Part shown: positions 2,430 to 46,115 of the stretch, piece by piece
How the letters are laid out: every line of letters starts with the position of its first letter
How positions within the stretch are numbered: position 1 is the stretch's first letter
Sequence record: OR544955
Strand: one strand, 5' to 3'
DNA from: Escherichia phage vB_EcoP_EP32B
Length of the DNA: 64,000 bases
Position numbers and translations under genes: made by a program
Notes under the pieces: model-generated
Seen by the model: the letters and a program-made list of their open reading frames with translations, nothing else
Told to the model about the DNA's origin: nothing
The model's database searches: none

Positions 2430-2903
2430 ATGTTATTATCAGGCGCAAAATATAAAGAAGAAAAACAAAAATTTTATGATGCACAGAATGGTAAGTGTCC
2501 TATTTGCCACCGTGAATTAGACCCTGATGTTCAAGGTAACCATCTTGACCACGACCATGAATTAAACGGGCCAAAAGCCGGTAGAGTTCGTGGGTTACTA
2601 TGTAACCTGTGCAATGCAGCAGAAGGTCAAATGAAGCATAAGTTCAACCGTTCTGGTCTTAAAGGTCAAAACGTTGACTACCTCGAATGGCTTGAAGCTC
2701 TTCTTGCTTATTTGAAACAAGATTATTCTGATAATAATATCCATCCTAATTTTGTTCCAGACAAAACTAAAGAGTTCTCAAGACTAGGTAAAGAGGAAAT
2801 GATGGCCGAGATGCTTCAAAGAGGATTTGAATATAATGAATCTGATACTAAAACACAATTAATAGCTTCATTCAAAAAGCAGCTTAGAAAGAGTTTAAAA
2901 TGA
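2430..2903 (+). CDS. 49: endonuclease VII (Holliday junction resolvase)
   Basis: 157 aa, zinc motif CPIC..C..C, HLDHDHELNGPKAGRVRGLLCNLCN as in T4 gp49. Confidence 0.95.
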   Translation: MLLSGAKYKEEKQKFYDAQNGKCPICHRELDPDVQGNHLDHDHELNGPKAGRVRGLLCNLCNAAEGQMKHKFNRSGLKGQNVDYLEWLEALLAYLKQDYSDNNIHPNFVPDKTKEFSRLGKEEMMAEMLQRGFEYNESDTKTQLIASFKKQLRKSLK

Positions 2904-4717
2904 AAATTGAAAAAGAAATTGAAGGATTAATTCGTAAAACTAATAAAGATCTTTTAAACGAGAATGCTAATAAAGATTCTCGTGTTTTTCCAACTCAACG
3001 GGACCTTATGGCTGGTATTGTGTCTAAGCACATTGCCAAAAATATGGTCCCGTCTTTTATTATGAAAGCGCATGAAAGTGGAATTATCCACATGCATGAT
3101 ATTGATTATTCTCCTGCTCTTCCGTTTACTAATTGTTGTTTAGTCGATTTAAAGGGGATGCTTGAGAACGGATTTAAATTAGGCAATGCTCAAATTGAAA
3201 CGCCTAAATCGATTGGTGTTGCTACTGCAATTATGGCACAAATTACTGCACAAGTTGCTTCACATCAGTATGGCGGAACTACATTTGCAAATGTCGATAA
3301 AGTTCTTTCTCCTTATGTTAAACGCACATACGCTAAACATGTTGAAGATGCGGAAAAATGGCAAATCGCTGATGCGTTGAATTATGCTCAATCCAAAACA
3401 GAAAAAGATGTCTATGACGCGTTCCAAGCTTATGAATATGAAGTAAATACTCTCTTTAGTTCAAATGGGCAAACGCCTTTTGTAACAATTACATTTGGTA
3501 CGGGAACCGACTGGACTGAACGAATGATTCAGAAGGCAATTCTTAAAAACCGCATTAAAGGTCTTGGTCGTGATGGAATAACTCCTATTTTCCCTAAGCT
3601 TGTTATGTTTGTTGAAGAAGGTGTTAATCTTTATAAAGATGATCCGAACTATGATATTAAGCAGCTTGCTCTAGAGTGTGCAAGTAAAAGGATGTATCCT
3701 GACATTATTTCGGTTAAGAATAATAAAGCTATTACCGGTTCTTCAATTCCAGTTTCTCCAATGGGTTGCCGTAGTTTCTTGGGCGTATGGAAAGATTCGA
3801 CTGGTAATGAAATTCTTGATGGACGTAATAATCTCGGTGTTGTAACGCTGAATCTTCCTCGAATTGCGTTAGATTCTTATATTGGAACACAATTTAACGA
3901 ACAGAAATTTGTTGAATTATTCAATGAACGAATGGATTTGTGTTTTGAAGCATTGATGTGTAGAATTAGTTCCTTAAAAGGAGTTAAAGCGACTGTTGCT
4001 CCTATTCTTTACCAAGAAGGTGCATTCGGGGTTCGTCTTAAACCCGATGACGATATAATTGAGTTATTTAAAAACGGTAGAAGTTCAGTGTCCTTAGGAT
4101 ACATTGGTATTCACGAATTGAATATTCTTGTTGGTCGTGATATTGGACAAGAAATTTTAACTAAAATGAATGCTCTTCTTAAACAATGGACTGAAAGAAC
4201 TGGGTTTGCTTTTAGCTTGTATTCTACACCTGCTGAAAACCTTTGTTATCGTTTCTGTAAACTAGACACAGAAAAATATGGAAGTGTAAAGGATGTTACT
4301 GATAAAGGATGGTATACTAACAGTTTCCACGTTTCAGTAGAAGAAAATATTACTCCGTTTGAAAAGATTTCTCGTGAAGCACCATATCATTTCATTGCGA
4401 CAGGTGGTCACATTTCTTATGTTGAACTTCCTGATATGAAAAACAACCTAAAAGGACTTGAGGCTGTATGGGATTATGCTGCACAGCATTTAGATTATTT
4501 TGGTGTTAATATGCCAGTAGATAAATGTTTTACATGTGGAAGTACCCATGAAATGACTCCGACTGAAAATGGATTTGTTTGTTCTATTTGTGGAGAAACT
4601 GATCCTAAAAAGATGAACACAATAAGAAGAACATGCGGCTATTTGGGGAATCCGAACGAACGAGGATTTAATCTCGGCAAAAATAAAGAAATCATGCATA
4701 GGGTTAAACACCAATGA
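2900..4717 (+). CDS. nrdD: anaerobic ribonucleoside-triphosphate reductase NrdD
   Basis: 605 aa continuous ORF, glycyl-radical C-terminus (RRTCGYLG), C-terminal zinc Cys cluster. Confidence 0.95.
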   Translation: MKIEKEIEGLIRKTNKDLLNENANKDSRVFPTQRDLMAGIVSKHIAKNMVPSFIMKAHESGIIHMHDIDYSPALPFTNCCLVDLKGMLENGFKLGNAQIETPKSIGVATAIMAQITAQVASHQYGGTTFANVDKVLSPYVKRTYAKHVEDAEKWQIADALNYAQSKTEKDVYDAFQAYEYEVNTLFSSNGQTPFVTITFGTGTDWTERMIQKAILKNRIKGLGRDGITPIFPKLVMFVEEGVNLYKDDPNYDIKQLALECASKRMYPDIISVKNNKAITGSSIPVSPMGCRSFLGVWKDSTGNEILDGRNNLGVVTLNLPRIALDSYIGTQFNEQKFVELFNERMDLCFEALMCRISSLKGVKATVAPILYQEGAFGVRLKPDDDIIELFKNGRSSVSLGYIGIHELNILVGRDIGQEILTKMNALLKQWTERTGFAFSLYSTPAENLCYRFCKLDTEKYGSVKDVTDKGWYTNSFHVSVEENITPFEKISREAPYHFIATGGHISYVELPDMKNNLKGLEAVWDYAAQHLDYFGVNMPVDKCFTCGSTHEMTPTENGFVCSICGETDPKKMNTIRRTCGYLGNPNERGFNLGKNKEIMHRVKHQ

Positions 4718-5184
4718 ATTATGATAGATTTTATCCTTGCGATTTTGTGAATGGCCCTGGTTGCAGGGTCGTTCTTTTCGTTACGGGTTGTTTGCATAAA
4801 TGCGAAGGGTGTTATAATAAATCAACATGGAATGCTAGAAATGGTACTCCATTCACTGGAGAGACACTAGAACAATTAATTGAATGTTTGAATAATGATT
4901 ATATAGAAGGATTGACTATAACCGGAGGAGACCCTCTCTATCCTGATAACCGAGATGTTATTCATCGCATTGCTCAAACAGTAAAAAATCTTTATCCTAA
5001 TAAAAGCATTTGGTTGTGGACAGGATACAAGTTTGAAGATATTAAACAACTAGAAATGCTTAAATATGTTGATGTTATTATTGATGGGAAGTATGAGAAA
5101 AATCTTCCGACTAAAAAGCTGTGGCGAGGATCAGATAATCAGCGACTTTGGTCAAATACCGATGGGGTGTGGAAACATGATTAA
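4714..5184 (+). CDS. nrdG: anaerobic RNR activating enzyme NrdG (radical SAM)
   Basis: 156 aa, CxxxCxxC (CLHKCEGC), translationally coupled to nrdD. Confidence 0.93.
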   Translation: MNYDRFYPCDFVNGPGCRVVLFVTGCLHKCEGCYNKSTWNARNGTPFTGETLEQLIECLNNDYIEGLTITGGDPLYPDNRDVIHRIAQTVKNLYPNKSIWLWTGYKFEDIKQLEMLKYVDVIIDGKYEKNLPTKKLWRGSDNQRLWSNTDGVWKHD

Positions 5185-13173: not shown

Positions 13174-13590
13174 ATGTTTACTACTGCTAAAGGTTTTACC
13201 GCTGCTGATCTGAAAGTTACTTCTATCCGTACTGACGCTAACCCGCATAACCATAATCGTGTTCGTAAAGCATGGGTCCTGCATTGTGATGACGCAAGTG
13301 CTAAAAAGCTTCAATCTTTGCCACAAGAAACTCGTTTTATGATTTATGGTTTTATTGATAACGATGTATCTGATATGTGGATTCATTTGATGCGTAAGCA
13401 CTATAAAGATTCTATCGAAGCAGGTGCTAAAATCGTTCTTGATAAAGATGGTTCTGAGCGTCTGGAAGATTTCTACTGTGTTGATGCCGATGAACAATTA
13501 ATTGCAGCTGGCGAAATTGTTGCTTCTAAAATTCCAGAATATATTGAATCACTGCCTGAAGCTATTAAAAAGCAGATGGTTGCTGCATAA
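13174..13590 (+). CDS. rpbA: RNA polymerase-binding protein RpbA-like (by synteny)
   Basis: 138-aa ORF between 45.2 and 45. Confidence 0.55.
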   Translation: MFTTAKGFTAADLKVTSIRTDANPHNHNRVRKAWVLHCDDASAKKLQSLPQETRFMIYGFIDNDVSDMWIHLMRKHYKDSIEAGAKIVLDKDGSERLEDFYCVDADEQLIAAGEIVASKIPEYIESLPEAIKKQMVAA

Positions 13591-13632
13591 TAAATTTGTT
13601 ATAAACTTTGAATTGTCTTGAAAGGAAATAAA

Positions 13633-14319
13633 ATGAAACTGTCTAAAGATACTATCGCTATTCTGAAAAACTTTGCCTCTATTAACTCAGGCATTCTGCT
13701 GAGTCAAGGTAAATTTATTATGACTCGTGCAGTTAATGGCACCACTTATGCGGAAGCAAATATCTCTGATGAAATTGATTTTGACGTAGCACTTTATGAT
13801 TTGAATAGCTTCTTAAGCATTTTGAGTCTAGTGTCTGATGATGCTGAAATTTCAATGCACACCGATGGCAATATTAAAATTGCAGACACACGTTCCACAG
13901 TTTATTGGCCTGCCGCTGACAAGAGCACCATTGTTTTTCCTAATAAGCCAATTCAATTCCCAGTGGCTTCTGTGATTACTGAAATTAAAGCTGAAGACCT
14001 TCAACAATTGCTTCGAGTTTCACGTGGTCTTCAGATTGATACAATTGCTATTACAAATAAAGATGGTAAAATTGTTATCAACGGCTATAATAAAGTTGAA
14101 GATTCCGGACTAACTCGTCCTAAGTATTCTTTGACTCTTACCGATTATGATGGCTCTAATAACTTTAACTTTGTAATCAATATGGCTAATATGAAAATCC
14201 AGCCAGGTAACTATAAAGTAATGTTGTGGGGAGCTGGTGATAAAGTTGCAGCTAAGTTTGAAAGCTCTCAAGTAAGTTATGTTATTGCAATGGAAGCCGA
14301 TTCTACTCACGACTTCTAA
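13633..14319 (+). CDS. 45: sliding clamp gp45
   Basis: 228 aa, MKLSKDTIAILKNFASINSGI...ADSTHDF, recalled T4 gp45 match. Confidence 0.95.
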   Translation: MKLSKDTIAILKNFASINSGILLSQGKFIMTRAVNGTTYAEANISDEIDFDVALYDLNSFLSILSLVSDDAEISMHTDGNIKIADTRSTVYWPAADKSTIVFPNKPIQFPVASVITEIKAEDLQQLLRVSRGLQIDTIAITNKDGKIVINGYNKVEDSGLTRPKYSLTLTDYDGSNNFNFVINMANMKIQPGNYKVMLWGAGDKVAAKFESSQVSYVIAMEADSTHDF

Positions 14320-14394
14320 GACAAAGATTTACGTTTAATGTGATACGATTATGGAGGAGAAATCCTCCAGTTTAATGATAATGAGGAAAATTAC

Positions 14395-16374: not shown

Positions 16375-19059
16375 ATGAAAGAATTTTACTTAACGGTTGA
16401 ACAGATTGGTGATTCAATTTTTGAACGTTACATCGATTCTAATGGCCGTGAACGTACTCGTGAAGTAGAATATAAACCATCACTGTTTGCTCATTGTCCA
16501 GAAAGTCAGGCTACGAAATATTTCGATATCTACGGTAAGCCGTGTACTCGTAAGTTGTTCGCTAATATGCGTGATGCCTCCCAATGGATTAAACGTATGG
16601 AAGATATCGGACTTGAAGCACTTGGCATGGACGATTTCAAATTGGCGTATTTGTCTGACACTTATAACTATGAAATCAAATACGACCATACAAAAATTCG
16701 TGTGGCTAACTTCGACATCGAAGTAACATCTCCGGACGGGTTCCCTGAGCCGTCACAAGCAAAACATCCGATTGATGCTATCACCCATTATGACTCAATT
16801 GACGACAGGTTCTACGTATTTGATCTATTGAATTCTCCATATGGTAATGTAGAAGAATGGTCTATCGAAATTGCAGCTAAGCTTCAAGAACAAGGTGGTG
16901 ATGAAGTTCCATCCGAAATTATCGATAAAATCATTTATATGCCGTTCGATAACGAAAAAGAATTGTTGATGGAATATCTCAACTTCTGGCAACAGAAAAC
17001 TCCTGTCATTTTGACTGGATGGAACGTTGAGTCATTTGATATTCCATATGTGTATAACCGAATCAAGAATATTTTTGGCGAATCTACTGCGAAACGTTTA
17101 TCACCACATCGTAAAACTCGTGTTAAAGTTATCGAAAACATGTATGGTTCTCGTGAAATCATTACATTGTTCGGTATCTCTGTTCTTGATTATATTGACC
17201 TTTACAAAAAATTCTCTTTTACCAATCAACCGTCGTATTCTCTGGATTACATTTCAGAATTTGAATTGAACGTTGGTAAACTGAAATACGACGGTCCTAT
17301 TTCTAAACTTCGTTATAACATCATCGACGTATATCGTGTATTGCAAATTGATGCTAAACGCCAGTTCATTAACTTGAGTTTGGACATGGGTTATTATGCT
17401 AAGATACAGATTCAATCTGTGTTTAGCCCAATTAAAACATGGGATGCTATTATTTTTAATAGCCTTAAAGAACAAAACAAGGTGATTCCACAAGGTCGTT
17501 CGCATCCAGTTCAACCTTACCCGGGTGCTTTTGTTAAGGAACCTATTCCAAATCGATACAAATATGTAATGAGTTTCGACCTTACATCTCTGTATCCAAG
17601 TATTATTCGCCAAGTGAATATTAGCCCGGAAACAATAGCAGGAACGTTTAAAGTAGCTCCACTGCATGATTATATTAACGCAATCGCTGAACGTCCTTCA
17701 GATGTGTACAGTTGCTCTCCTAACGGCATGATGTATTATAAAGACCGTGACGGTGTTGTTCCAACTGAAATCACTAAGGTCTTTAATCAACGTAAAGAAC
17801 ATAAAGGTTATATGCTTGCAGCTCAACGTAATGGTGAAATAATTAAAGAGGCATTGCATAATCCTAATCTTTCTGTTGACGAACCATTAGATGTTGATTA
17901 TCGTTTCGACTTCAGCGATGAGATTAAAGAAAAGATTAAAAAGTTGTCTGCTAAATCTCTTAATGAAATGTTGTTTAGAGCTCAACGTACTGAAGTTGCA
18001 GGTATGACTGCACAGATTAACCGTAAATTGCTTATCAACTCACTTTATGGTGCACTTGGAAACGTTTGGTTCCGTTATTATGATTTGCGTAATGCTACTG
18101 CAATCACAACATTCGGACAAATGGCTTTACAGTGGATTGAACGTAAAGTTAATGAATATCTGAATGAAGTTTGCGGTACAGAAGGTGAAGCTTTCGTTCT
18201 TTATGGTGATACAGACTCTATTTACGTATCTGCTGATAAAATTATCGATAAGGTTGGTGAATCTAAATTCCGTGATACCAACCATTGGGTAGACTTCTTA
18301 GATAAGTTCGCTCGTGAACGTATGGAACCTGCTATTGATAGAGGTTTCCGTGAAATGTGCGAATACATGAATAATAAGCAACATTTGATGTTCATGGACC
18401 GAGAAGCTATCGCTGGTCCTCCGCTCGGTTCTAAAGGTATTGGTGGATTTTGGACTGGTAAGAAACGTTATGCATTAAACGTGTGGGATATGGAAGGTAC
18501 TCGTTACGCTGAGCCTAAACTCAAAATCATGGGTCTAGAGACTCAGAAATCTTCGACACCTAAAGCAGTACAGAAAGCTCTTAAAGAATGTATTCGTCGT
18601 ATGCTTCAAGAAGGTGAAGAATCATTACAAGAATATTTTAAAGAGTTTGAAAAAGAATTCCGTCAATTGAATTATATTAGCATCGCGTCGGTATCTTCTG
18701 CGAATAACATTGCTAAATATGATGTCGGTGGATTCCCTGGCCCCAAATGTCCGTTCCATATTCGTGGAATTCTGACATATAACCGAGCTATCAAAGGTAA
18801 TATCGATGCACCGCAAGTTGTAGAAGGTGAAAAAGTATATGTTCTGCCTTTACGTGAAGGAAACCCATTCGGTGATAAATGTATCGCATGGCCTTCTGGT
18901 ACGGAAATCACTGATTTAATCAAAGATGATGTACTTCATTGGATGGACTACACGGTTCTCCTTGAGAAGACATTTATTAAACCACTTGAAGGATTCACAT
19001 CAGCAGCTAAACTCGATTACGAGAAGAAAGCATCTCTGTTCGATATGTTTGATTTTTGA
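16375..19059 (+). CDS. 43: DNA polymerase gp43 (family B, RB69-type numbering)
   Basis: 894 aa; Exo I FDIE (D114/E116), D222, YGDTDS, KILINSLYG; strong match to recalled RB69 gp43. Confidence 0.97.
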   Translation: MKEFYLTVEQIGDSIFERYIDSNGRERTREVEYKPSLFAHCPESQATKYFDIYGKPCTRKLFANMRDASQWIKRMEDIGLEALGMDDFKLAYLSDTYNYEIKYDHTKIRVANFDIEVTSPDGFPEPSQAKHPIDAITHYDSIDDRFYVFDLLNSPYGNVEEWSIEIAAKLQEQGGDEVPSEIIDKIIYMPFDNEKELLMEYLNFWQQKTPVILTGWNVESFDIPYVYNRIKNIFGESTAKRLSPHRKTRVKVIENMYGSREIITLFGISVLDYIDLYKKFSFTNQPSYSLDYISEFELNVGKLKYDGPISKLRYNIIDVYRVLQIDAKRQFINLSLDMGYYAKIQIQSVFSPIKTWDAIIFNSLKEQNKVIPQGRSHPVQPYPGAFVKEPIPNRYKYVMSFDLTSLYPSIIRQVNISPETIAGTFKVAPLHDYINAIAERPSDVYSCSPNGMMYYKDRDGVVPTEITKVFNQRKEHKGYMLAAQRNGEIIKEALHNPNLSVDEPLDVDYRFDFSDEIKEKIKKLSAKSLNEMLFRAQRTEVAGMTAQINRKLLINSLYGALGNVWFRYYDLRNATAITTFGQMALQWIERKVNEYLNEVCGTEGEAFVLYGDTDSIYVSADKIIDKVGESKFRDTNHWVDFLDKFARERMEPAIDRGFREMCEYMNNKQHLMFMDREAIAGPPLGSKGIGGFWTGKKRYALNVWDMEGTRYAEPKLKIMGLETQKSSTPKAVQKALKECIRRMLQEGEESLQEYFKEFEKEFRQLNYISIASVSSANNIAKYDVGGFPGPKCPFHIRGILTYNRAIKGNIDAPQVVEGEKVYVLPLREGNPFGDKCIAWPSGTEITDLIKDDVLHWMDYTVLLEKTFIKPLEGFTSAAKLDYEKKASLFDMFDF

Positions 19060-19099
19060 TATAATGCCAAGGACGGCCAACTAATTAAATGAGAGAAAT

Positions 19100-19408
19100 A
19101 TGAAAACTACTCCTATTACTATCGCTATTGACGCAATCATAAAACAAGCTTCTTCTTTGGCCGCTATGGCCAAAGTAATTAGTCAAAACCCTGCTCGTTA
19201 TAATGCTATTCTAGAAACTCTTCGACGCCCTGGACTGAGTAATTATGAAAGTCGTGTAATTATTACAGGTGTTGGTAAGAACGCTAATATCGCAACTAAA
19301 GCTTCCGAGACATTTGCTTCACTCGGTATCCCGAGTATGTACTTGAACACTGGGCATTATTCTCACGGTGATGCAGGATTCATTGCGCCTAATGAGGCAT
19401 CGCGGTAG
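19100..19408 (+). CDS. KdsD/GutQ-like SIS-domain sugar-phosphate isomerase, N-terminal part (gene frameshifted, continues 19396-19575)
   Basis: ITGVGKNANIATK..TFASLGIPS..HGD; downstream frame has LAPTMSTT and HPGGALG. Confidence 0.6.
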   Translation: MKTTPITIAIDAIIKQASSLAAMAKVISQNPARYNAILETLRRPGLSNYESRVIITGVGKNANIATKASETFASLGIPSMYLNTGHYSHGDAGFIAPNEASR

Positions 19409-19575
19409 AGGTTGATGAGAATTCTCTGGCTCCGACAATGTCTACTACATTGTTGTTAGCGCTTATCGATACGTTCGCTATCAACCTTTCGTCTGAACGT
19501 GGATTTACCTCTAATGATTTCCTTAAGTTCCATCCAGGCGGTGCACTAGGTGCCATGTTACGAGGCGAACAATGA
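19396..19575 (+). pseudogene. C-terminal segment of the SIS isomerase in the -1 frame
   Basis: open frame from 19396 encoding GIAVEVDENSLAPTMSTT...GFTSNDFLKFHPGGALG, no start codon. Confidence 0.55.
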
Positions 19576-19715
19576 AAGCAATAACAATAGGACTTTTACT
19601 ATTGATGCTTGTCATGACTATCTACTGGAGCTTAACGGCTCCGGTAATGATTCCAACACTTGTAATTGGATGGATTATGATTGGACTACAAGCAAAGTAT
19701 GAATGCTTTAACTAG
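19572..19715 (+). CDS. small membrane protein (47 aa)
   Basis: ATGA overlap, hydrophobic. Confidence 0.4.
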   Translation: MKAITIGLLLLMLVMTIYWSLTAPVMIPTLVIGWIMIGLQAKYECFN

Positions 19716-19756
19716 AATAGTGTACAATACACCTACTTACCAATGAGGACTTCAAC

Positions 19757-21442
19757 ATGAAAAAAGCTGTTATTCTTGGTGCTGGACTGGCAACTCGTTT
19801 GTATCCAATAACGCATCATATTCCAAAAGTTCTTGTGAACTATAAACAAGACACTATTCTGAGCAATTTGTATACAATTTATTCTGACCTTGGCGCAGAT
19901 GAAATTATTGTAGTAGTTCATTCAAAATTTGCTGAAACTGTTCGAGCTTATTGTGAGCAAGAAGGGTTCAATGTGACTATTCGTACAGTTGATGAAGCGT
20001 ATGGTTCTGCTTATGCTCTTGCTAAATTACACAAAGATTTAGATGGCCATAACGTAATTGTTAACTGGTGTGATATTATTCCTGATTTTGGTTCATGGTC
20101 TTGGAATGTTAATGCAATCTATGTTAAGGGTGACGAATGTCGATATAATTTTGACGGTGAAAATATCACTAACGTAGGTTCAACAGGTGGTAATGTTGTA
20201 GGAATTTATCAGTTCAAAGACTGGGAATTCTACATGGGTTCTACTGATGAGGAAATTCACGAATACTGCAAAGGTCGTGATTTCGTAGAATTCCTTTACG
20301 GCAGCGCATTCAATAAATCAGAGCTTATGAATCTAATTGATTTAGGTGATATGCCTAAACTTGAAAAAGCTCATGAAGTTCGTGAACTTAATCGTAGTTT
20401 TAATGCAGTTGAAATTGGTGAAGAAACTGTAACTAAATTCGCATTAACCGAACAAGGTCGAGCTCTTCAAAAAGATGAGATTTCATGGTATTTGAAAGTG
20501 AAATCAGATTCAGTTCCTCAGTTAGTTTCGGTAAATGAAAATAATTTTGAAATGGAACGCATTAAAGGTAAGCCGGCATTTGAATATATTAAATCCAAAT
20601 CAAGTCTTGCTCGTCCACAAATTGTTGATGCAATTTTAGATGCACTGAAATTCAGCACAGACACTTATTTTGTAAGTCCTGAAACTGTTCGTCGTGATTT
20701 CACTAAAGAATTCTATACGAAAGTTATTGATCGTTGTGAAAGCATTCAGCCATTGATTGATTCATTTGGTAAAATCACACACGTGAACTACACTAAGATT
20801 GGACGTCTGAAGCCAATGCTGAAGCAAGCTTTAGAACATCTTATTCGTTATCATACCCGTTCTCAGGGACAGTACTCTGTTATTCATGGTGACCCGAACT
20901 TCAGTAATACTATGATTACTGATAATGGCGAAGTCAAGTTTATCGACCCTCGTGGATATTTTGGCGAAACCAAGATTTACGGGCCAAAATTGTACGATGA
21001 AGCTAAAGTGCTTTATGCTGTTTCAGGTTATGATGAATTCAACGCTAATCCGACCTGGGGACAGTTTACTATTGACGAAACAACTTGTAATGTGACTATT
21101 AACATCAATCCATTAGTTTACAAATATGGAAAGATGAGTTCGTTTAACGAGTATCATCATTTGGCTGTAGCAATTATCTGGATTGCATTAGGTGGTTATT
21201 TCAAGAATAATCCACTTAAAGCGGTAGCCGCATATTATAAAGGTATGGAACTTCTGACTAAGCAATTACGTAACATGGGCCGTGTACTTCAAGACGGCTC
21301 TATTAGTTATGACGTAGCAGAACCTGTAACGGCTACTCTGATTACAAAAAATCCTGGTAAATGGGTACTAACTGATAAAGAAACTGGTGTTTCTTATCGT
21401 CCAATCGGTGGCGATATCACTCATCAATGGGAACGAATCTAA
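19757..21442 (+). CDS. bifunctional sugar-1-phosphate nucleotidyltransferase / sugar kinase (APH-choline-kinase-like)
   Basis: N-term GAGLATRL; C-term HGDPNFSN catalytic loop and IDPRG; 561 aa. Confidence 0.75.
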   Translation: MKKAVILGAGLATRLYPITHHIPKVLVNYKQDTILSNLYTIYSDLGADEIIVVVHSKFAETVRAYCEQEGFNVTIRTVDEAYGSAYALAKLHKDLDGHNVIVNWCDIIPDFGSWSWNVNAIYVKGDECRYNFDGENITNVGSTGGNVVGIYQFKDWEFYMGSTDEEIHEYCKGRDFVEFLYGSAFNKSELMNLIDLGDMPKLEKAHEVRELNRSFNAVEIGEETVTKFALTEQGRALQKDEISWYLKVKSDSVPQLVSVNENNFEMERIKGKPAFEYIKSKSSLARPQIVDAILDALKFSTDTYFVSPETVRRDFTKEFYTKVIDRCESIQPLIDSFGKITHVNYTKIGRLKPMLKQALEHLIRYHTRSQGQYSVIHGDPNFSNTMITDNGEVKFIDPRGYFGETKIYGPKLYDEAKVLYAVSGYDEFNANPTWGQFTIDETTCNVTININPLVYKYGKMSSFNEYHHLAVAIIWIALGGYFKNNPLKAVAAYYKGMELLTKQLRNMGRVLQDGSISYDVAEPVTATLITKNPGKWVLTDKETGVSYRPIGGDITHQWERI

Positions 21443-21828
21443 TGCACCGTGTAGAAAACATGCTTAATCTTTGTTTTGATGTCGATGATTGTATAACAGA
21501 GTGGAATAACAATCGTGATTACGTGAACTTCAAACCAGACGTCGAAATGGTGACTGCTATTAATGCCCTGTATGATGCAGGGCATACCATAACGCTTTAC
21601 ACTGCTCGTGGTATGAAGTCAGTAGGTCCTGGTCGTATAGCAATTGACATTCTCCCAAGTCTGATTCAGAACTTGGAAAACATTGGTTTGAAGTACCATA
21701 ATTTGCTAACACATAAACCAGTATATGATTGGATTATCGACGACAAAGCTATGCGTCCCGACGAATTCAAAGCTCTTATGAATAAAGGCGAATTCGAAAC
21801 ATTTAAATCATATAAACCGAATCTATAA
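21442..21828 (+). CDS. HAD-superfamily phosphatase
   Basis: motif I FDVDDCIT (DxDxT); TAATG coupling. Confidence 0.65.
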   Translation: MHRVENMLNLCFDVDDCITEWNNNRDYVNFKPDVEMVTAINALYDAGHTITLYTARGMKSVGPGRIAIDILPSLIQNLENIGLKYHNLLTHKPVYDWIIDDKAMRPDEFKALMNKGEFETFKSYKPNL

Positions 21829-21884
21829 TAATTTAAGTAAGACCTGCAAAAACCATCGCATAAATTAACGTGAGATGCAAAAAA

Positions 21885-23045
21885 ATGAATACTTTTAAAA
21901 TTGGAACGAATTTTGATTTAGCTCTTCTTGATAAAATCGTAGAGCTCAATAAAACTTATCCTAATAGCTTGATAAACGAAGTATACGGCTCTACAAGAGA
22001 AATGGCTTTTGTAGCAGCCAGACCTGATTTTAGGCTTCCTGACGTTGACAAAAAGATGTTAGAAGATTACGTTAAACGTTGTAACGAATTAGGTATTTGC
22101 TTTAACTATACACTCAACACGATAAATCCTGGTTCAAAAAGAGAACTAGTCGAGTGGAAGAAGAAAGCTATTCAGGATTATGTTCAGTATCTTTGGTCAA
22201 TAGGCGTATGGCGTATTACTATCGCTAACCCTGTTGTTATGGAAATTGTTCGTGAAGTCAATAAAGACATTGAGATTGAAGTTTCAACAATTCTACATGT
22301 CGATGCTGTAACTCAAATAAAATACTTGCATGACCAATATAATATCAAAAAGGTCTGCTGTGGAATTCATAAGAACCGTTCAGTTTCTTTCCTGAAGCGT
22401 GCAGCAGAGTTTTGCAATAAGAACAATATAATATTTGAAGTTCTTGTAAATGAGTTCTGTTCTAATGCTGGTAAAGGGTATACAACACATTGTAGCTATC
22501 GTGACTCTTGCTATATTTTCCATAGTACTGATGTTACAGCCGATGATGCTAAATCCTTAAACGGGTATCCTATGCAGCACTGTATTAAAGCTCGTGATAC
22601 AGACCCATTTAACTGGTTGAGAACTCGTTTTGTTCGTCCTCAAGATTTGAAACTTTATAATGATATTGGTATCACTCAATTCAAAGTTTCAGGACGTACA
22701 GGTAGCACAGACTACATTTTGAAAGTTCTTGAAGCATACGCTTCTGAAAAGTTTGAAGGTAATTTGTTAGAACTGTGGAAGCCTTTAGAGACTATTTTCA
22801 CTCTTGAAAATGAAACTGAGTTTTCACATACAGTAAATATTGAAACCTCTTTGTTAGATGGCTTTTTAGAAAAAAGGTGGTTCAGACATCCAGATTTTGA
22901 TTGTGCTAATGAAATCTGTGGATCAACGTGTACATATTGTGAAAGATATTATAAACGTCAATTATCTAAAAACGGGTTAGCAGAAAACTCTATATCTATT
23001 ATTGATATAACTAACTCTGATGACGCTTTGAGGTACCCGGAATGA
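21885..23045 (+). CDS. hypothetical protein with Cys-rich C-terminus; faint peptidase-U32-like motif
   Basis: 386 aa; NEFCSNAGKGYTTHCS and CANEICGSTCTYC. Confidence 0.5.
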   Translation: MNTFKIGTNFDLALLDKIVELNKTYPNSLINEVYGSTREMAFVAARPDFRLPDVDKKMLEDYVKRCNELGICFNYTLNTINPGSKRELVEWKKKAIQDYVQYLWSIGVWRITIANPVVMEIVREVNKDIEIEVSTILHVDAVTQIKYLHDQYNIKKVCCGIHKNRSVSFLKRAAEFCNKNNIIFEVLVNEFCSNAGKGYTTHCSYRDSCYIFHSTDVTADDAKSLNGYPMQHCIKARDTDPFNWLRTRFVRPQDLKLYNDIGITQFKVSGRTGSTDYILKVLEAYASEKFEGNLLELWKPLETIFTLENETEFSHTVNIETSLLDGFLEKRWFRHPDFDCANEICGSTCTYCERYYKRQLSKNGLAENSISIIDITNSDDALRYPE

Positions 23046-23323
23046 TTTCTAGAAAAACTTTTAATCACCAACTTAATGAAGAGATTTTGACTATTAAAAT
23101 TAACACTAACGAACAAATTCTTAAAAAGGCCCTTATGGGCCTGTTTGAAACTAAAGCGGCTAAAGTGATTAAAGAACCTGTTCAATTGGAATACTACGCT
23201 GATGCATTTCTTCATAGTGTTCTTGGAAGTATCGATGCTGAAGCTTTACGTTATATCAACATTGTCAAGAAATTCAAATAAGCTTTACGAATTGAGTATA
23301 TAATAAATTGTATTGAGGTAAAC

Positions 23324-24040
23324 ATGGGAAAACATAACACAATGAAATATATCAAAGCCGCAGATTTTCAAACCGCATTTAAAGCAGTCAATCGTGAAAT
23401 TTTAGAAAACCCGGAATTCGTAACTGATTCTCGTATTGGACGTTGTAATGAAATTGGGTCTATGACAGTAGTTGTTGACACTCCATCATCATTCAAAATG
23501 ACCGACCCGCGTATTAACCGCATCTCTTATGAATATGCCGAAGACTTCTGGAAGTTTATGATTTCTGGTGGTACTGACGCAGAAGAAGCGTTTAAGGCAT
23601 ATCCTAATGTCGCTAAATTTATTTCTAAACCAAAATCAGATGCTTTGCCTGCAAACTTCAACACTTTCTATGGTCCTCGCATTGCGGCCCAATTACCAGC
23701 TCTTCTAAAAGAACTTAAAGAGAAGCCTAACTCCAGAAGAGTTGTGTTCCAAATTCTAGAAAGTTCTGATCAGGCTTTGCTTGATTCGGACGAAACGCTT
23801 GAATATCCATGTACTGACTCAGTGACTTATTATATTCGTGACGGTAAGCTTTATACCCACTGTCATATGCGTTCCCAGAACTGTGCTGTTGTTATGCAGT
23901 TGGATTTTTATCTCCAAGGAAAATTACTTCATTATATCGCTAACGAATGCGGTGTAGAAGTTGGTGATTATACTCATACCATGGTAAGTGCCCATGTGTT
24001 TGAACGTGATTTTGATTATGTTAAAGGATTCCTTGACTAA
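23324..24040 (+). CDS. thymidylate-synthase-family deoxypyrimidylate hydroxymethylase (gene 42 position)
   Basis: NSRR, catalytic Cys in YPCT, MRSQN..D; RBS GAGG. Confidence 0.65.
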   Translation: MGKHNTMKYIKAADFQTAFKAVNREILENPEFVTDSRIGRCNEIGSMTVVVDTPSSFKMTDPRINRISYEYAEDFWKFMISGGTDAEEAFKAYPNVAKFISKPKSDALPANFNTFYGPRIAAQLPALLKELKEKPNSRRVVFQILESSDQALLDSDETLEYPCTDSVTYYIRDGKLYTHCHMRSQNCAVVMQLDFYLQGKLLHYIANECGVEVGDYTHTMVSAHVFERDFDYVKGFLD

Positions 24041-24939
24041 TGGCTATTTTCCGCGTACCAATCTTGAGTATGCGGTCTTATGAAACTGGTCAGTATGCTA
24101 TCCTTAAGGATGGCAACTTCCAACTTCATTTGCACCGTGCTAATCCGGGTGATGTGATTACATATCCACGTAATGCATCTGATATTAAAGAATGCGAACG
24201 TCTTTTTCCGGAATTTAAGTTTGTTCCATTATGGTATAAAGATAACGCGTATAACACTCGTAAATATTTCTGGTCTGAAAATGAATTTGTGGTTGATTCA
24301 TTAATTGCTTATTATGATTGTGATTTTCTAATCACAGATATCACTGGTTATGATGGCGCTTTTGACGTAGAATTCAATTTCAATATCACTGCAGACCCTA
24401 ATAAACCACGTTTTTATATTGATGAATTCTTAAAAACTGATATGTTGTCGGTTAATCGTTCACTTCAAACTACTGTGTTGAATGAACGTCAAAAAGAAGT
24501 GCTGGTTAACGCAGGTGCAGATGGTAATAAGATTATCGTAACGCAGAAAGTTATACGTCCTTCCGTCATGCAGCGTCTTGTAGGTGATTTGGCTCCTATT
24601 CATCTAGATGGTATTTTTCATCCATTTCGAATTAGTGACCCATGCTATCGTTTTGAACAAGTGGTTGAATGCGCAATTCAATTAGGTCAACCGCTTTATA
24701 TAACTGATCCAAATAATAGTTTCGACAGAAATAAGTATCCTGAAGAAGCGCTGATTCGAATTTTTAATCCAACTAAAACTGAGTACTATCAAATTCTTAA
24801 AGGACGTCCGAAGATTCAATATTTCGAAAATCCTGAAGAAGTATTCCATCCAGGTCTTGGTGAGTTCATCTACTTTAATGCTTTAATTTCTTCACCGTAT
24901 AATATACCTAAATACGAAGATGTCGTAATCGAGGAATAA
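24040..24939 (+). CDS. hypothetical protein (beta-gt position, no recognisable motifs)
   Basis: 299-aa ORF coupled ATGGCT after TAA. Confidence 0.5.
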   Translation: MAIFRVPILSMRSYETGQYAILKDGNFQLHLHRANPGDVITYPRNASDIKECERLFPEFKFVPLWYKDNAYNTRKYFWSENEFVVDSLIAYYDCDFLITDITGYDGAFDVEFNFNITADPNKPRFYIDEFLKTDMLSVNRSLQTTVLNERQKEVLVNAGADGNKIIVTQKVIRPSVMQRLVGDLAPIHLDGIFHPFRISDPCYRFEQVVECAIQLGQPLYITDPNNSFDRNKYPEEALIRIFNPTKTEYYQILKGRPKIQYFENPEEVFHPGLGEFIYFNALISSPYNIPKYEDVVIEE

Positions 24940-24940
24940 A

Positions 24941-25489
24941 ATGGCTAAAATTATTTTAGTAGACGGGCCGGATAATGCTGGTAAAACAACTTTCATTAAT
25001 GACATAATGGAAATTAGTGAAAGATATGTAAAGATTGATTTCCCTAAACGAACAGTTGATGGGCGTTTCGATGTTAAGTCTCGAAATGAAGTCGGCTGTT
25101 TCGAAACGATGTTGAATTATTTGGACCCTACTAAGATTTATCTGTTAGACCGTGGATATATTAGTAACTGGGTTTATGGACGTATTCGACAAGATGTGGA
25201 CTCGGTTCTTGACGTTTATGAACAGGATTATGTTCGTCTTTGCCAAAACCATGATGTGTTCACAATTATTTTAACACGTAACGAAATGACTGAAAGTTTT
25301 GAAGACGACCTTATTACTTTGTCTTCATTCGGTTTTAATACAGTCATTTCATATTTTGAAGAGTTTGCAATTCATAACAAAATCCAAACGTATCAATTAC
25401 TTAATCATGATGGTGCTAATAAAGTTATAGGATTTAACGCAAGCGAACGTAATAATTTGATTACAGAAATCATCAAATGGGCTCGTTAA
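24941..25489 (+). CDS. P-loop nucleotide kinase-like protein
   Basis: ILVDGPDNAGKTTF Walker A; 182 aa. Confidence 0.6.
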   Translation: MAKIILVDGPDNAGKTTFINDIMEISERYVKIDFPKRTVDGRFDVKSRNEVGCFETMLNYLDPTKIYLLDRGYISNWVYGRIRQDVDSVLDVYEQDYVRLCQNHDVFTIILTRNEMTESFEDDLITLSSFGFNTVISYFEEFAIHNKIQTYQLLNHDGANKVIGFNASERNNLITEIIKWAR

Positions 25490-25587
25490 GAGCCATTTAA
25501 AGTTTTAAATGCTGTATAACCCTTAGTATATAATCATCTTATCTTTTAAACATGAGTAAAATATAATGATGCCTATGGAAAAATACA

Positions 25588-26760
25588 ATGTCTGATTTAA
25601 AATCTCGTCTGATTAAAGCTTCTACTTCTAAAATGACTGCAGACTTGACTAAGTCTAAGCTGTTTAATAATCGTGATGAAGTCCCTACTCGTATTCCGAT
25701 GTTGAATATTGCATTAGGTGGTGCACTGAATGCCGGGTTGCAATCAGGCTTAACTATTTTTGCTGCTCCTTCTAAACACTTTAAAACGTTGTTTGGACTA
25801 ACTATGGTTGCAGCGTATATGAAGAAATATAAAGATGCAATCTGTTTGTTTTATGACTCAGAATTCGGTGCTTCGGAATCTTATTTTCGTTCAATGGGTG
25901 TTGATTTAGACCGTGTAGTTCATACTCCGATTCAATCTGTCGAACAACTTAAGGTTGATATGACTAATCAGCTTGACGCGATTGAACGCGGTGATAAAGT
26001 TATTATCTTTATCGATTCAATCGGTAATACTGCATCTAAGAAAGAAACCGAAGATGCGTTGAACGAGAAAGTTGTAGGTGATATGTCTCGTGCTAAGGCA
26101 CTTAAATCTCTGTTCCGCATTGTGACTCCTTATCTGACTATTAAAGATATTCCGTGTGTTGCAATTAACCATACTGCAATGGAAATTGGCGGACTATATC
26201 CTAAAGAGATTATGGGCGGTGGTACAGGTATTCTTTATTCTGCCAACACGGTATTTTTTATCTCTAAACGTCAGGTTAAAGAAGGTACAGAATTGACCGG
26301 TTATGACTTTACGTTGAAAGCGGAAAAATCTCGTACAGTTAAAGAGAAATCTACTTTCCCGATCACGGTTAATTTTGATGGCGGTATTGACCCATTCAGT
26401 GGCTTGTTAGAAATGGCAACTGAAATTGGATTTGTTGTTAAGCCTAAAGCCGGGTGGTATGCTCGTGAATTCCTTGACGAAGAAACAGGTGAAATGATTC
26501 GTGAAGAAAAATCATGGCGTGCTAAAGCTACTGATTGTGTAGAATTCTGGGGACCTTTGTTTAAACACAAACCTTTCCGAGATGCAATTGAAACTAAATA
26601 TAAACTAGGTGCTATCTCTTCTATTAAAGAAGTTGATGACGCTGTTAACGACCTTATTAATTGCAAAGCAACAACTAAAGTTCCGGTTAAAACTTCTGAT
26701 GCTCCGTCTGCAGCAGATATAGAAAACGACCTTGACGAAATGGAAGATTTCGATGAATAA
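25588..26760 (+). CDS. uvsX: recombinase UvsX (RecA-like)
   Basis: 390 aa, RecA fold motifs, recalled T4 UvsX match. Confidence 0.96.
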   Translation: MSDLKSRLIKASTSKMTADLTKSKLFNNRDEVPTRIPMLNIALGGALNAGLQSGLTIFAAPSKHFKTLFGLTMVAAYMKKYKDAICLFYDSEFGASESYFRSMGVDLDRVVHTPIQSVEQLKVDMTNQLDAIERGDKVIIFIDSIGNTASKKETEDALNEKVVGDMSRAKALKSLFRIVTPYLTIKDIPCVAINHTAMEIGGLYPKEIMGGGTGILYSANTVFFISKRQVKEGTELTGYDFTLKAEKSRTVKEKSTFPITVNFDGGIDPFSGLLEMATEIGFVVKPKAGWYAREFLDEETGEMIREEKSWRAKATDCVEFWGPLFKHKPFRDAIETKYKLGAISSIKEVDDAVNDLINCKATTKVPVKTSDAPSAADIENDLDEMEDFDE

Positions 26761-45030: not shown

Positions 45031-45621
45031 ATGAAAGTTATGTTTATCCCATCTCGCGCAGTCCCATTTAATCCTGACCGTGTACAAGGTGGACTTGAAG
45101 CAGTACATTTAAATGTGTTGAAATATTTAGTTTCTATCGGTGCCGATATTGATTATATTGGTTTTGATAATGACACATTTGGTGATTGGAAGGTTAATCA
45201 TCATCCTGTTGGTCATCTGACTAAATTCAGTCTAGGTATGAGTTATACTATGGCCCGTAAGATTGTTGAACTAGCCGGCATCCATGAATACGATTTTGTT
45301 GTTACTATGGAACCGACTAAACTAACCGTCCAAGCAATTAAAGATGCTGGACTCTCTAAAGTTCATAAGAATTTTATGGCAACACCGTTTGAACCGGTAT
45401 CTCGTGGCATTGTTCAAATTTGGGACCAGACTATTCAAATTCATAAGAATGGTGGTAAGAGTTATGCTCCTACTAAAGCCTTCCGTGAATTTGAACGTAA
45501 ATATTGTTATATGACTTCAGGTCTGACTGACAAAATTGATTATGATTATTGGCGAGCAAATCCGTTGTTTGAAGCCGAAGATTATCCGGTTATTTGTTTG
45601 AATGAGAAACCTGAGATCTGA
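45031..45621 (+). CDS. GT-B-fold glycosyltransferase, N-terminal domain (gene split by frameshift)
   Basis: MKVMFIPSRAVPFNPDRVQGGLE..; ends NEKPEI. Confidence 0.55.
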   Translation: MKVMFIPSRAVPFNPDRVQGGLEAVHLNVLKYLVSIGADIDYIGFDNDTFGDWKVNHHPVGHLTKFSLGMSYTMARKIVELAGIHEYDFVVTMEPTKLTVQAIKDAGLSKVHKNFMATPFEPVSRGIVQIWDQTIQIHKNGGKSYAPTKAFREFERKYCYMTSGLTDKIDYDYWRANPLFEAEDYPVICLNEKPEI

Positions 45622-46115
45622 TTATTAGTGCACAACGTTATGACACTAAAATGCGTCGTACTGATGTTGCTCTTGAAGCGATTAAAGCACTAGGCGAAAA
45701 TGGTGCAGGATACTGTCCAAGCAAATGGGCACCACCAGCTAAATATCCTGTTATTATTGATGCTCAACACAGTGAAATCATGGAACGTCTTAAAACAGCT
45801 AAAGCACTTATTAATACGTGTCCTGACACAGGTACGGTAGAGAATAGTTCTATTGAAGCCATCTCTAAAGGTGTCCCTGTAATCCAGTTAGTTTTTAAGG
45901 ATTATCCTCATGCGACATTCGAATACGACCCAGATACTGTGCGTGTAGAAATTGATTCCTCTACTCCTAAGAAAGAAGTAGTTGCGCTTTACACAAAAGC
46001 TGTATTAGAATTCACTGACACATACGAAGCTCGAGTTAAACGTGCTGAAGCAGTATGGAAGAAGTATAATCGAGATGCAGTTGTTGCGATGTGGGATAAA
46101 ATCTTCACAGCGTAA
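45615..46115 (+). CDS. GT-B-fold glycosyltransferase, C-terminal domain (-1 frame; first ATG at 45651)
   Basis: frame open from 45615: DLIISAQRYDTKMRRTDVALEAIKAL, typical of GT4 C-domain start. Confidence 0.55.
   Translation, partial: DLIISAQRYDTKMRRTDVALEAIKALGENGAGYCPSKWAPPAKYPVIIDAQHSEIMERLKTAKALINTCPDTGTVENSSIEAISKGVPVIQLVFKDYPHATFEYDPDTVRVEIDSSTPKKEVVALYTKAVLEFTDTYEARVKRAEAVWKKYNRDAVVAMWDKIFTA

Follow-up and report, generated by a model that had tools for sequence, protein, structure and literature searches.

We have analysed a 64,000-nucleotide stretch of Escherichia phage vB_EcoP_EP32B (sequence record OR544955; hereafter the window, with positions counted from its first letter) and in particular two large open reading frames (ORFs) of 386 and 299 amino acids (aa) at 21885-23045 and 24040-24939 that lie among genes for DNA modification. 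All features of the window that we give by position are encoded on the plus strand. The window belongs to an RB69-like Mosigvirus and is, between positions 19000 and 25600, 97.8-98.5% identical to RB69 and other Mosigviruses. The module comprises, in this order, the genes for DNA polymerase, an arabinose-5-phosphate isomerase, a nucleotidyltransferase/kinase, a HAD phosphatase and the 386-aa protein, followed by a 79-aa ORF, a ThyA homologue, the 299-aa ORF, a TMK-like kinase and uvsX.

An earlier note, made from the letters of this DNA alone, had placed both ORFs at the coordinates that we confirm here and had described them as unknown proteins within a modification module. The module is real, but it is not of the T4 type: Lee et al. 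(NAR 2026, PMC13326640) demonstrated mono- and di-arabinosyl-5-hydroxycytosine in RB69 DNA, and the product of the module is arabinosyl-5-hydroxycytosine, not glucosyl-hydroxymethylcytosine or another T4-type derivative of hydroxymethylcytosine. The hydroxylated base is made by the ThyA homologue RB69 gp48, which forms 5-hydroxy-deoxycytidine monophosphate (5-hydroxy-dCMP) with flavin mononucleotide (FMN) as cofactor and with oxygen that comes from O2, as shown with 18O2 (PMC13326640). Its orthologue in the window (23324-24040; Pfam Thymidylat_synt) matches the solved enzyme of phage HY126 over its full length (PDB 9iqc/9ir2, E = 4.5e-162) and is annotated here as an FMN- and O2-dependent 5-hydroxy-dCMP synthase, a function established by experiment in the same study.

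Family, fold and conserved cysteines of the two proteins

The reading frame of the 386-aa protein is open from a GTG (21870-23045), and the ATG at 21885 gives a product of 386 residues that agrees with the N-termini of its homologues (MNTFK...). A resemblance to peptidase family U32 that the earlier note had called faint is a genuine match to Pfam PF01136 (Peptidase_U32; residues 94-286, E = 7e-11) with a score of 42.2 bits, where the gathering threshold is 22.4, and this domain is present in all close homologues. The protein is the orthologue of RB69 gp50, a name that we use for it below, and occurs in 221 phage records at no less than 80% identity, with 14 synonymous and 3 non-synonymous codon differences between the window and RB69. 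Both ORFs have PHROG matches (E = 7e-267 for the 386-aa and 1e-155 for the 299-aa ORF) and are real genes, not chance ORFs: they are intact, conserved and under purifying selection.

An AlphaFold2 (AF2) model of gp50 with a predicted local distance difference test score (pLDDT) of 90.9 adopts the TIM-barrel fold of the U32 family, with the U32 peptidase Mk0906 (PDB 5d88) as the top match (E = 1.3e-7, TM-score of 0.68 normalised to the target) and just generic TIM barrels besides. To our knowledge, 5d88 is the only solved U32 structure, and no structure of a U32 hydroxylase has been solved. Searches of PDB sequences with the 386-aa and the 299-aa ORFs returned nothing meaningful. Among the NCBIfam models, the sole match of gp50 was to UbiU, with 18.5 bits far from the equivalog cut-off of 440, and there was no match to TrhP or RlhA. 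The subfamily around gp50 (E <= 1e-30) forms 111 clusters at 50% identity. By its sequence, gp50 appears to represent a separate phage subfamily of U32 and not an orthologue of any characterised member.

The literature has little to say about this protein. In a table of Lee et al., gp50 stands as "sugar or heterocycle reductase", and 5d88 is given as its structural match (PMC13326640); that paper contains no discussion of gp50, no link between U32 and prephenate and no observation of a chorismate mutase, and the Thanatos, Durham-collection and transposon-mutagenesis papers are silent on the U32 gene. In the accessible literature, gp50 has no assigned function beyond the reductase label; the 299-aa protein is published as a predicted arabinosyltransferase.

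Four cysteines of the U32 motif, C192, C203, C209 and C233 (22458-22583), may together hold a first iron-sulfur (Fe-S) cluster, as judged by alignment and conservation. When aligned with the E. coli proteins, C203, C209 and C233 correspond to C169, C176 and C193 of UbiU, to C170, C177 and C193 of TrhP and to C169, C176 and C192 of RlhA, i.e., they belong to the conserved [4Fe-4S] cysteines, and the position of the fourth ligand differs. Across 97 representatives of the subfamily, reaching down to 26% identity, C203 and C233 are invariant and C192 is kept in 96, and position 209 holds a cysteine in 66 and a histidine in 30. The cysteine-rich C-terminus seen by the earlier note is indeed there: the string CANEICGSTCTYC (residues 340-352, nucleotides 22902-22940) follows the pattern Cx4CGxTCxYC, and its cysteines C340, C345, C349 and C352, each kept in 95-96 of the 97 representatives, are candidates for a second metal or Fe-S site. 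This pattern suggests two four-ligand sites in gp50. For UbiU, a C176A exchange abolishes Fe-S cluster binding, and for RlhA, C169, C176 and C-terminal cysteines are essential for formation of ho5C2501 (PMC5727448). We also considered the C-terminal CGSTCTYC as a radical-SAM motif; the spacing fits Cx3Cx2C, but there is no match to a Radical_SAM profile, and since the motif sits at the end of the U32 barrel, an auxiliary cluster as in RlhA is more likely.

The 299-aa ORF (24040-24939) is the orthologue of RB69 gp46:47 and immediately follows the gene-42 homologue, with uvsX two genes further on, in what corresponds to the beta-gt slot of T4, just as the earlier note had it. It was also right that the protein has no recognisable motif: neither Pfam nor NCBIfam gave a match, and no Pfam domain was found in 120 homologues among the matches listed. 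An AF2 model built on an alignment of 33 sequences (pLDDT 93.9) displays GT-B topology with two Rossmann-like domains. It has no Glycos_transf_1 or EX7E signature as in retaining, GT4-like enzymes of this fold, although a conserved VFHPGLxEF segment loosely resembles the motif, and T4 beta-glucosyltransferase is not among its top fold matches. Published as predicted arabinosyltransferase 1 (PMC13326640), i.e., the one that would attach the first, base-proximal sugar, the protein is again predicted to be a transferase in our analysis, and the model independently confirms its GT-B fold. In the RB69 reference record, this gene is broken up into ORFs 046 and 047, a split that Lee et al. explain by a sequencing error (PMC13326640); in the window it is single and intact, as is the counterpart of the other split ORF pair of RB69 in that study.

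Gene neighbourhoods of the U32 and 299-aa families

Ten distinct metagenomic loci with U32 homologues of 49-56% identity (designated below, like other fetched loci, by L numbers) are all phage-like or rich in genes for nucleotide metabolism and DNA replication. Seven of them carry a homologue of the 299-aa protein (family GT299; hidden Markov model, HMM, E = 1e-25 to 8e-37) near the U32 gene, abutting it in six cases and lying two genes upstream in L017. Most loci with GT299 and U32 also encode a TMK-like kinase related to that of the window, which is found upstream of the GT299-like gene in L022, L023, L026, L027 and L028; the kinase of L024 was counted solely by its similarity to that of L023. 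A ThyA homologue was not found in any of the ten loci within the roughly 8 kb fetched on either side of the U32 gene. Two environmental jumbo-phage loci (L020 and L021) show the reverse arrangement, with a GT299 homologue, a downstream TMK-like kinase, a ThyA homologue and a Flavodoxin_2 gene but no U32. GT299 therefore occurs with a ThyA-type hydroxylase, with U32 or, in RB69-like phages, with both. Such a distribution is what one would expect of non-orthologous hydroxylases that can stand in for each other, with U32 as a second source of the hydroxyl group that receives the sugar.

Several of these loci have further features of interest. The Flavodoxin_2 (FMN-reductase-like) gene lies directly upstream of the ThyA-like, GT299 and TMK-like genes in L021 (8739-9293) and ca. 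6 kb upstream of them in L020 (1978-2523), and its product is a candidate flavin-reducing partner of the O2-dependent 5-hydroxy-dCMP synthase. On an 80-kb metagenomic phage contig (L017:4903-10804), genes for GT299, arabinose-5-phosphate isomerase, an AfhE-like protein, U32, DAHP synthase and an NAD-epimerase stand in a row without a ThyA homologue, in what looks like an arabinosylation-type module on U32 alone. A 61-kb phage contig (L022:5777-13076) carries around its GT299-U32 pair a Gly_transf_sug glycosyltransferase (GT), two proteins similar to T4 alpha-GT (TAGT), a dUTPase/dCTP-deaminase-like gene and a UDP-galactopyranose mutase, a gene set that suggests modification of a 5-hydroxypyrimidine with several sugars, perhaps including galactofuranose. 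Several metagenomic phages have a gene for a radical-SAM protein, often with a SPASM domain, beside the cassette of kinase, GT and U32 or beside the U32 gene (L002:1-249, L003:12160-13185, L023:5980-7011, L024:5972-7000); its product could serve as an activase, in electron transfer or in a further modification step. Finally, L003 has a second, divergent U32-like gene (13227-14360; 22% identity, sub-threshold in Pfam) 4 kb from the first and near genes for NT5C, a deoxynucleoside kinase and a nucleoside deoxyribosyltransferase-like protein; its two U32 proteins might form a pair like UbiU and UbiV.

A second linkage concerns the supply of prephenate. The gene directly after U32 encodes a CM_2 chorismate mutase in Serratia phage LC53, Enterobacter phage Entb_45, a Klebsiella phage and Shewanella phage Thanatos-2, i.e., in four of the six genera examined, and in Pectobacterium phage PM2 and Proteus phage Pm5461 the chorismate mutase is next but one. 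These proteins match PF01817 (CM_2) above threshold (E = 8e-8 to 3e-12) and resemble the AroQ chorismate mutase domain of PheA (EcCM) in retaining R11, R28, K39, E52, S84 and Q88, while its D48 and R51 are replaced. By tblastn, the gene was found in 51 phage records and lies, among the matches listed, under or beside the U32 and ThyA genes; in Thanatos-2, the U32-chorismate mutase pair has been relocated as a unit to a new place in the module. At metagenomic locus L017, U32 is followed by a gene for a DAHP synthase (E = 2.6e-70). DAHP synthase is the entry enzyme of the shikimate pathway, and prephenate is the product of chorismate mutase. Prephenate, in turn, is the oxygen donor of the U32-dependent UbiU/UbiV pathway and is also needed by RlhA and TrhP. 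Searches of the accessible library for U32 and phage together with arabinose or chorismate mutase yielded no paper that links these phage genes.

Other genes of the module

Apart from the genes discussed above, the module encodes a bifunctional, AfhE-like sugar-1-phosphate nucleotidyltransferase and kinase (19757-21442; Pfam NTP_transferase and weak kinase-family matches) that corresponds to RB69 gp52:53, described as making the uridine diphosphate (UDP) sugar UDP-arabinofuranose (UDP-Araf) (PMC13326640). An AfhF-like HAD-type phosphatase, RB69 gp51 (21427-21828; NCBIfam TIGR01689, E = 2e-13), is described in the same paper, and the thymidylate-kinase-like nucleotide kinase is the orthologue of RB69 gp45 (24941-25489; PHROG 761, E = 7e-45). 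A scan for promoters and terminators across 19000-25700 gave results no better than those for shuffled sequence.

Three deletions set the window apart from the close relatives that were checked. The arabinose-5-phosphate isomerase gene (19100-19702; blastn and tblastn against RB69) is disrupted by a deletion of ca. 160 nt with its junction near 19395, and its ORF stops at 19408 after 102 instead of 211 aa; at this gene, the alignments to the close relatives listed fall into two parts, with ca. 160 nt more on the side of the relatives. A phage with a disrupted isomerase would rely on KdsD or GutQ of the host, and several related phages have no match to this isomerase in the loci that we fetched. 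A second arabinosyltransferase gene (45031-46115), the counterpart of RB69 gp3 and of the HY126 GT solved as PDB 9iqz (E = 4.5e-133 to residues 4-199 of 9iqz_H), is split into ORFs of 196 and 154 aa in a stretch that lacks 16 nt compared to relatives; should the split be genuine, the phage might make mono-arabinosyl-5-hydroxycytosine only. The DNA polymerase ORF (16375-19059), lastly, encodes 894 aa compared to 903 aa (2712 nt) annotated in RB69, with 27 nt lost in frame.

The 79-aa ORF, RB69 gp49 (23042-23281), starts within the end of the U32 gene, overlapping its stop codon. We asked if it could be a diverged chorismate mutase and rejected this idea, since there was no CM_2 match at E <= 10, hhalign gave a probability of 0.1 against the alignment of phage chorismate mutases, and PM2 has both genes, with the 79-aa homologue sitting between those for U32 and chorismate mutase. 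The family, to which the gene at L012:5155-5328 also belongs, is essentially restricted to Mosigviruses, and many of its database members are shortened to 47-58 aa. Compared to RB69, the ORF shows 3 synonymous and 4 non-synonymous codon differences, a pattern that looks relaxed.

A putative oxygen-independent route to 5-hydroxycytosine

The idea of the earlier note that the two proteins serve additional modification or transfer steps is supported by the GT-B fold of the 299-aa protein and by the family and gene linkages of gp50, and nothing indicates a function outside nucleotide or sugar metabolism. All non-protease functions of U32 proteins that have genetic evidence are prephenate-dependent, O2-independent hydroxylations. 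We consider it reasonably probable that gp50 represents a new phage subfamily of U32 and acts as a 5-hydroxypyrimidine synthase that uses prephenate and needs no O2, evolutionarily coupled to the 299-aa transferase. In this model, gp50 would hydroxylate C5 of a pyrimidine, most likely turning dCMP into 5-hydroxy-dCMP, with oxygen from prephenate instead of O2 and with the help of the U32-motif cluster at C192/C203/C209/C233 and a second cluster at C340-C352. It would thereby allow the base that the ThyA-like FMN enzyme gp48 makes from O2 to be formed anaerobically as well and would back up this enzyme; 5-hydroxy-dCMP would then be phosphorylated and incorporated by the polymerase, and the 299-aa GT-B protein would move the first arabinofuranose from UDP-Araf to the 5-hydroxyl. 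While family membership, conserved ligand cysteines, GT-B fold and gene linkages are direct observations, we infer the hydroxylase chemistry, the use of prephenate, the substrate and the anaerobic role from the family, the conserved ligands and the gene neighbourhoods, and likewise the acceptor of the transferase.

The closest precedent is RlhA (YdcP) of E. coli, which depends on prephenate and Fe-S and makes 5-hydroxycytidine at C2501 of 23S rRNA, i.e., performs the same base chemistry that we propose for gp50 (PMC5727448). Its essential C169 and C176 align with the phage C203 and C209, and its further essential C-terminal cysteines have a parallel in the C-terminal site of gp50. The two proteins differ in that they share only ca. 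22% identity, that RlhA has 653 aa including a DUF3656 domain that the 386-aa phage protein lacks, and that RlhA acts on a ribosome assembly intermediate, whereas gp50 is found among DNA-precursor genes and has a C-terminal motif of the form Cx4Cx3Cx2C. UbiU/UbiV and TrhP provide a second precedent, in which a flavin/O2 route is paired with a U32/prephenate route to one product. With UbiU, gp50 shares the C-x-x-A-R context after C233 and the conserved motif FK[IV]xGR; UbiU differs by forming a heterodimer with UbiV whose substrate is a lipid, while gp50 has its second cysteine site in cis.

The same pairing recurs in E. coli, where TrhO (O2-dependent) and TrhP both make ho5U34 and where UbiIHF and UbiUV both serve ubiquinone synthesis. 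The window itself encodes the anaerobic ribonucleotide reductase NrdD and its activase NrdG (2900-5184; Pfam NRDD, E = 1.9e-170, and Fer4_12/Radical_SAM, E = 6e-49), which indicates that the phage has the means to replicate in anoxic hosts. The U32 matches in cultured phages all have at least 80% identity, and the carriers listed are phages of Enterobacterales or of Shewanella. ThyA homologues occur in 57 phage records from Acinetobacter and in 20 from Rhizobium; neither genus is among the organisms listed for U32, Acinetobacter is not among the top organisms listed for NrdD, and U32 was not found in the locus of Acinetobacter phage Maestro.

Various points weigh against our proposal. The pattern of aerobic versus facultatively anaerobic hosts is confounded with phage phylogeny and thus lends weak support to a role of oxygen, and has exceptions, such as the Dhakaviruses of E. 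coli, in which U32 is missing altogether. The fourth UbiU ligand, C232, has no counterpart in gp50, and we propose that C192 takes its place. The metagenomic loci were seen for ca. 8 kb per side, and a ThyA-like gene could lie elsewhere on these genomes. An HMM search of the six-frame translation of the 64-kb window found no chorismate mutase, and all Mosigviruses are without it, so prephenate would have to come from PheA or TyrA of the host; for the window, the link to chorismate mutase is one of orthology only. Klebsiella phage Clarke_MM3 (L011:4001-5918) has the ThyA homologue directly after U32 with neither chorismate mutase nor the 79-aa ORF in between, which marks the small genes after U32 as dispensable accessories. 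A 2026 study by He et al. (Nat Chem Biol) deals with the near-identical phage HY126 and its Afh cluster and may already assign or exclude these roles. In air, gp48 and a deoxynucleoside monophosphate kinase suffice to produce 5-hydroxydeoxycytidine (PMC13326640), and gp50 is therefore dispensable under these conditions. The accessible literature contains no biochemical or genetic test of gp50, and no U32 hydroxylase has been reconstituted in vitro to date. On the side of the transferase, purified DLP3 GTs that were tested singly did not transfer a first arabinose to 5-hydroxycytosine DNA in vitro (PMC13326640), and the Thanatos homologue TH1_063 formed UDP-xylose from UTP and xylose-1-phosphate in vitro but showed no transfer (PMC12838424).

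This latter activity is also what favours reading the 299-aa protein as a UDP-pentose pyrophosphorylase that activates the sugar instead of transferring it to DNA. Transferase activity in the family has so far been predicted only, yet we regard the pyrophosphorylase as unlikely. Just as unlikely, in our view, is that gp50 acts differently on the sugar or the base, e.g., as the reductase of Table 1 in PMC13326640 or through a different prephenate-dependent hydroxylation in the pathway. The TIM barrel is common to many sugar-phosphate enzymes, and L017 does carry an epimerase and sugar-activation genes, but minimal cassettes of kinase, GT and U32 exist without any sugar-activation genes, and the reported RB69 products, mono- and di-arabinosyl-5-hydroxycytosine, require no extra reduction. 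We also know of no U32 protein that is a reductase.

A slightly poorer candidate still is a role of gp50 as redox or maturation partner of gp48, e.g., in supplying electrons to FMN through Fe-S clusters. It would fit the need of gp48 for reduced flavin, the two conserved cysteine sites of gp50 and the close neighbourhood of the U32 and ThyA genes in all T4-like carriers. In the ten metagenomic loci, however, U32 has no ThyA homologue nearby and is accompanied in seven by GT299, whereas the partner gene where ThyA occurs alone is Flavodoxin_2 and not U32; linkage to chorismate mutase and DAHP synthase would also be left unexplained. If gp50 hydroxylated tRNA or rRNA of the host or the phage and thereby adjusted translation in the infected cell, it would follow the example of RlhA and TrhP, as both characterised pyrimidine-hydroxylating U32 proteins act on RNA, but this appears improbable given that gp50 lacks DUF3656 and the other C-terminal domains of these proteins, stays far below the NCBIfam equivalog cut-offs and always has neighbours for DNA precursors, DNA glycosylation or replication. 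That gp50 is a genuine collagenase-type peptidase, as its GenBank annotation, other database entries and the historical family name imply, is hardly credible, because no mechanism of U32 proteolysis is known (PMC5727448) and the Fe-S cysteines, the context of nucleotide metabolism and the linkage to chorismate mutase would have no explanation.

Beyond the proposed role of gp50 as an O2-independent hydroxylase, a wider evolutionary scenario is conceivable, though we hold it tentatively and with somewhat more doubt than belief. The gp50 subfamily would hydroxylate a free deoxynucleotide, dCMP or deoxyuridine monophosphate (dUMP), with prephenate and would form with GT299 and the TMK-like kinase an old three-gene cassette that is widespread in uncultivated phages. 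T4-like phages of facultative anaerobes would then have added the O2- and FMN-dependent ThyA-like enzyme and often a chorismate mutase of their own, enabling them to make the base with or without oxygen.

In RB69-type DNA, 5-hydroxycytosine fully replaces cytosine, and its only known maker needs O2, yet these gut phages carry an anaerobic ribonucleotide reductase. An O2-independent route from prephenate, if true, would resolve this paradox and explain why phages carry genes for chorismate mutase or DAHP synthase. It would further add DNA precursors to RNA and quinones as targets of U32 hydroxylases, and gp50 would be the first of these enzymes to have a small, soluble substrate, opening a way to the first in vitro assay of a U32 hydroxylase. 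For many uncultivated phages, the cassette of kinase, GT and U32 makes it likely that they carry glycosylated 5-hydroxypyrimidines. For therapeutic Mosigviruses, the modification state of their DNA would depend on oxygen and on the flux through the aromatic pathway of the host, and so would, as a consequence, how well they withstand restriction, CRISPR and type IV systems.

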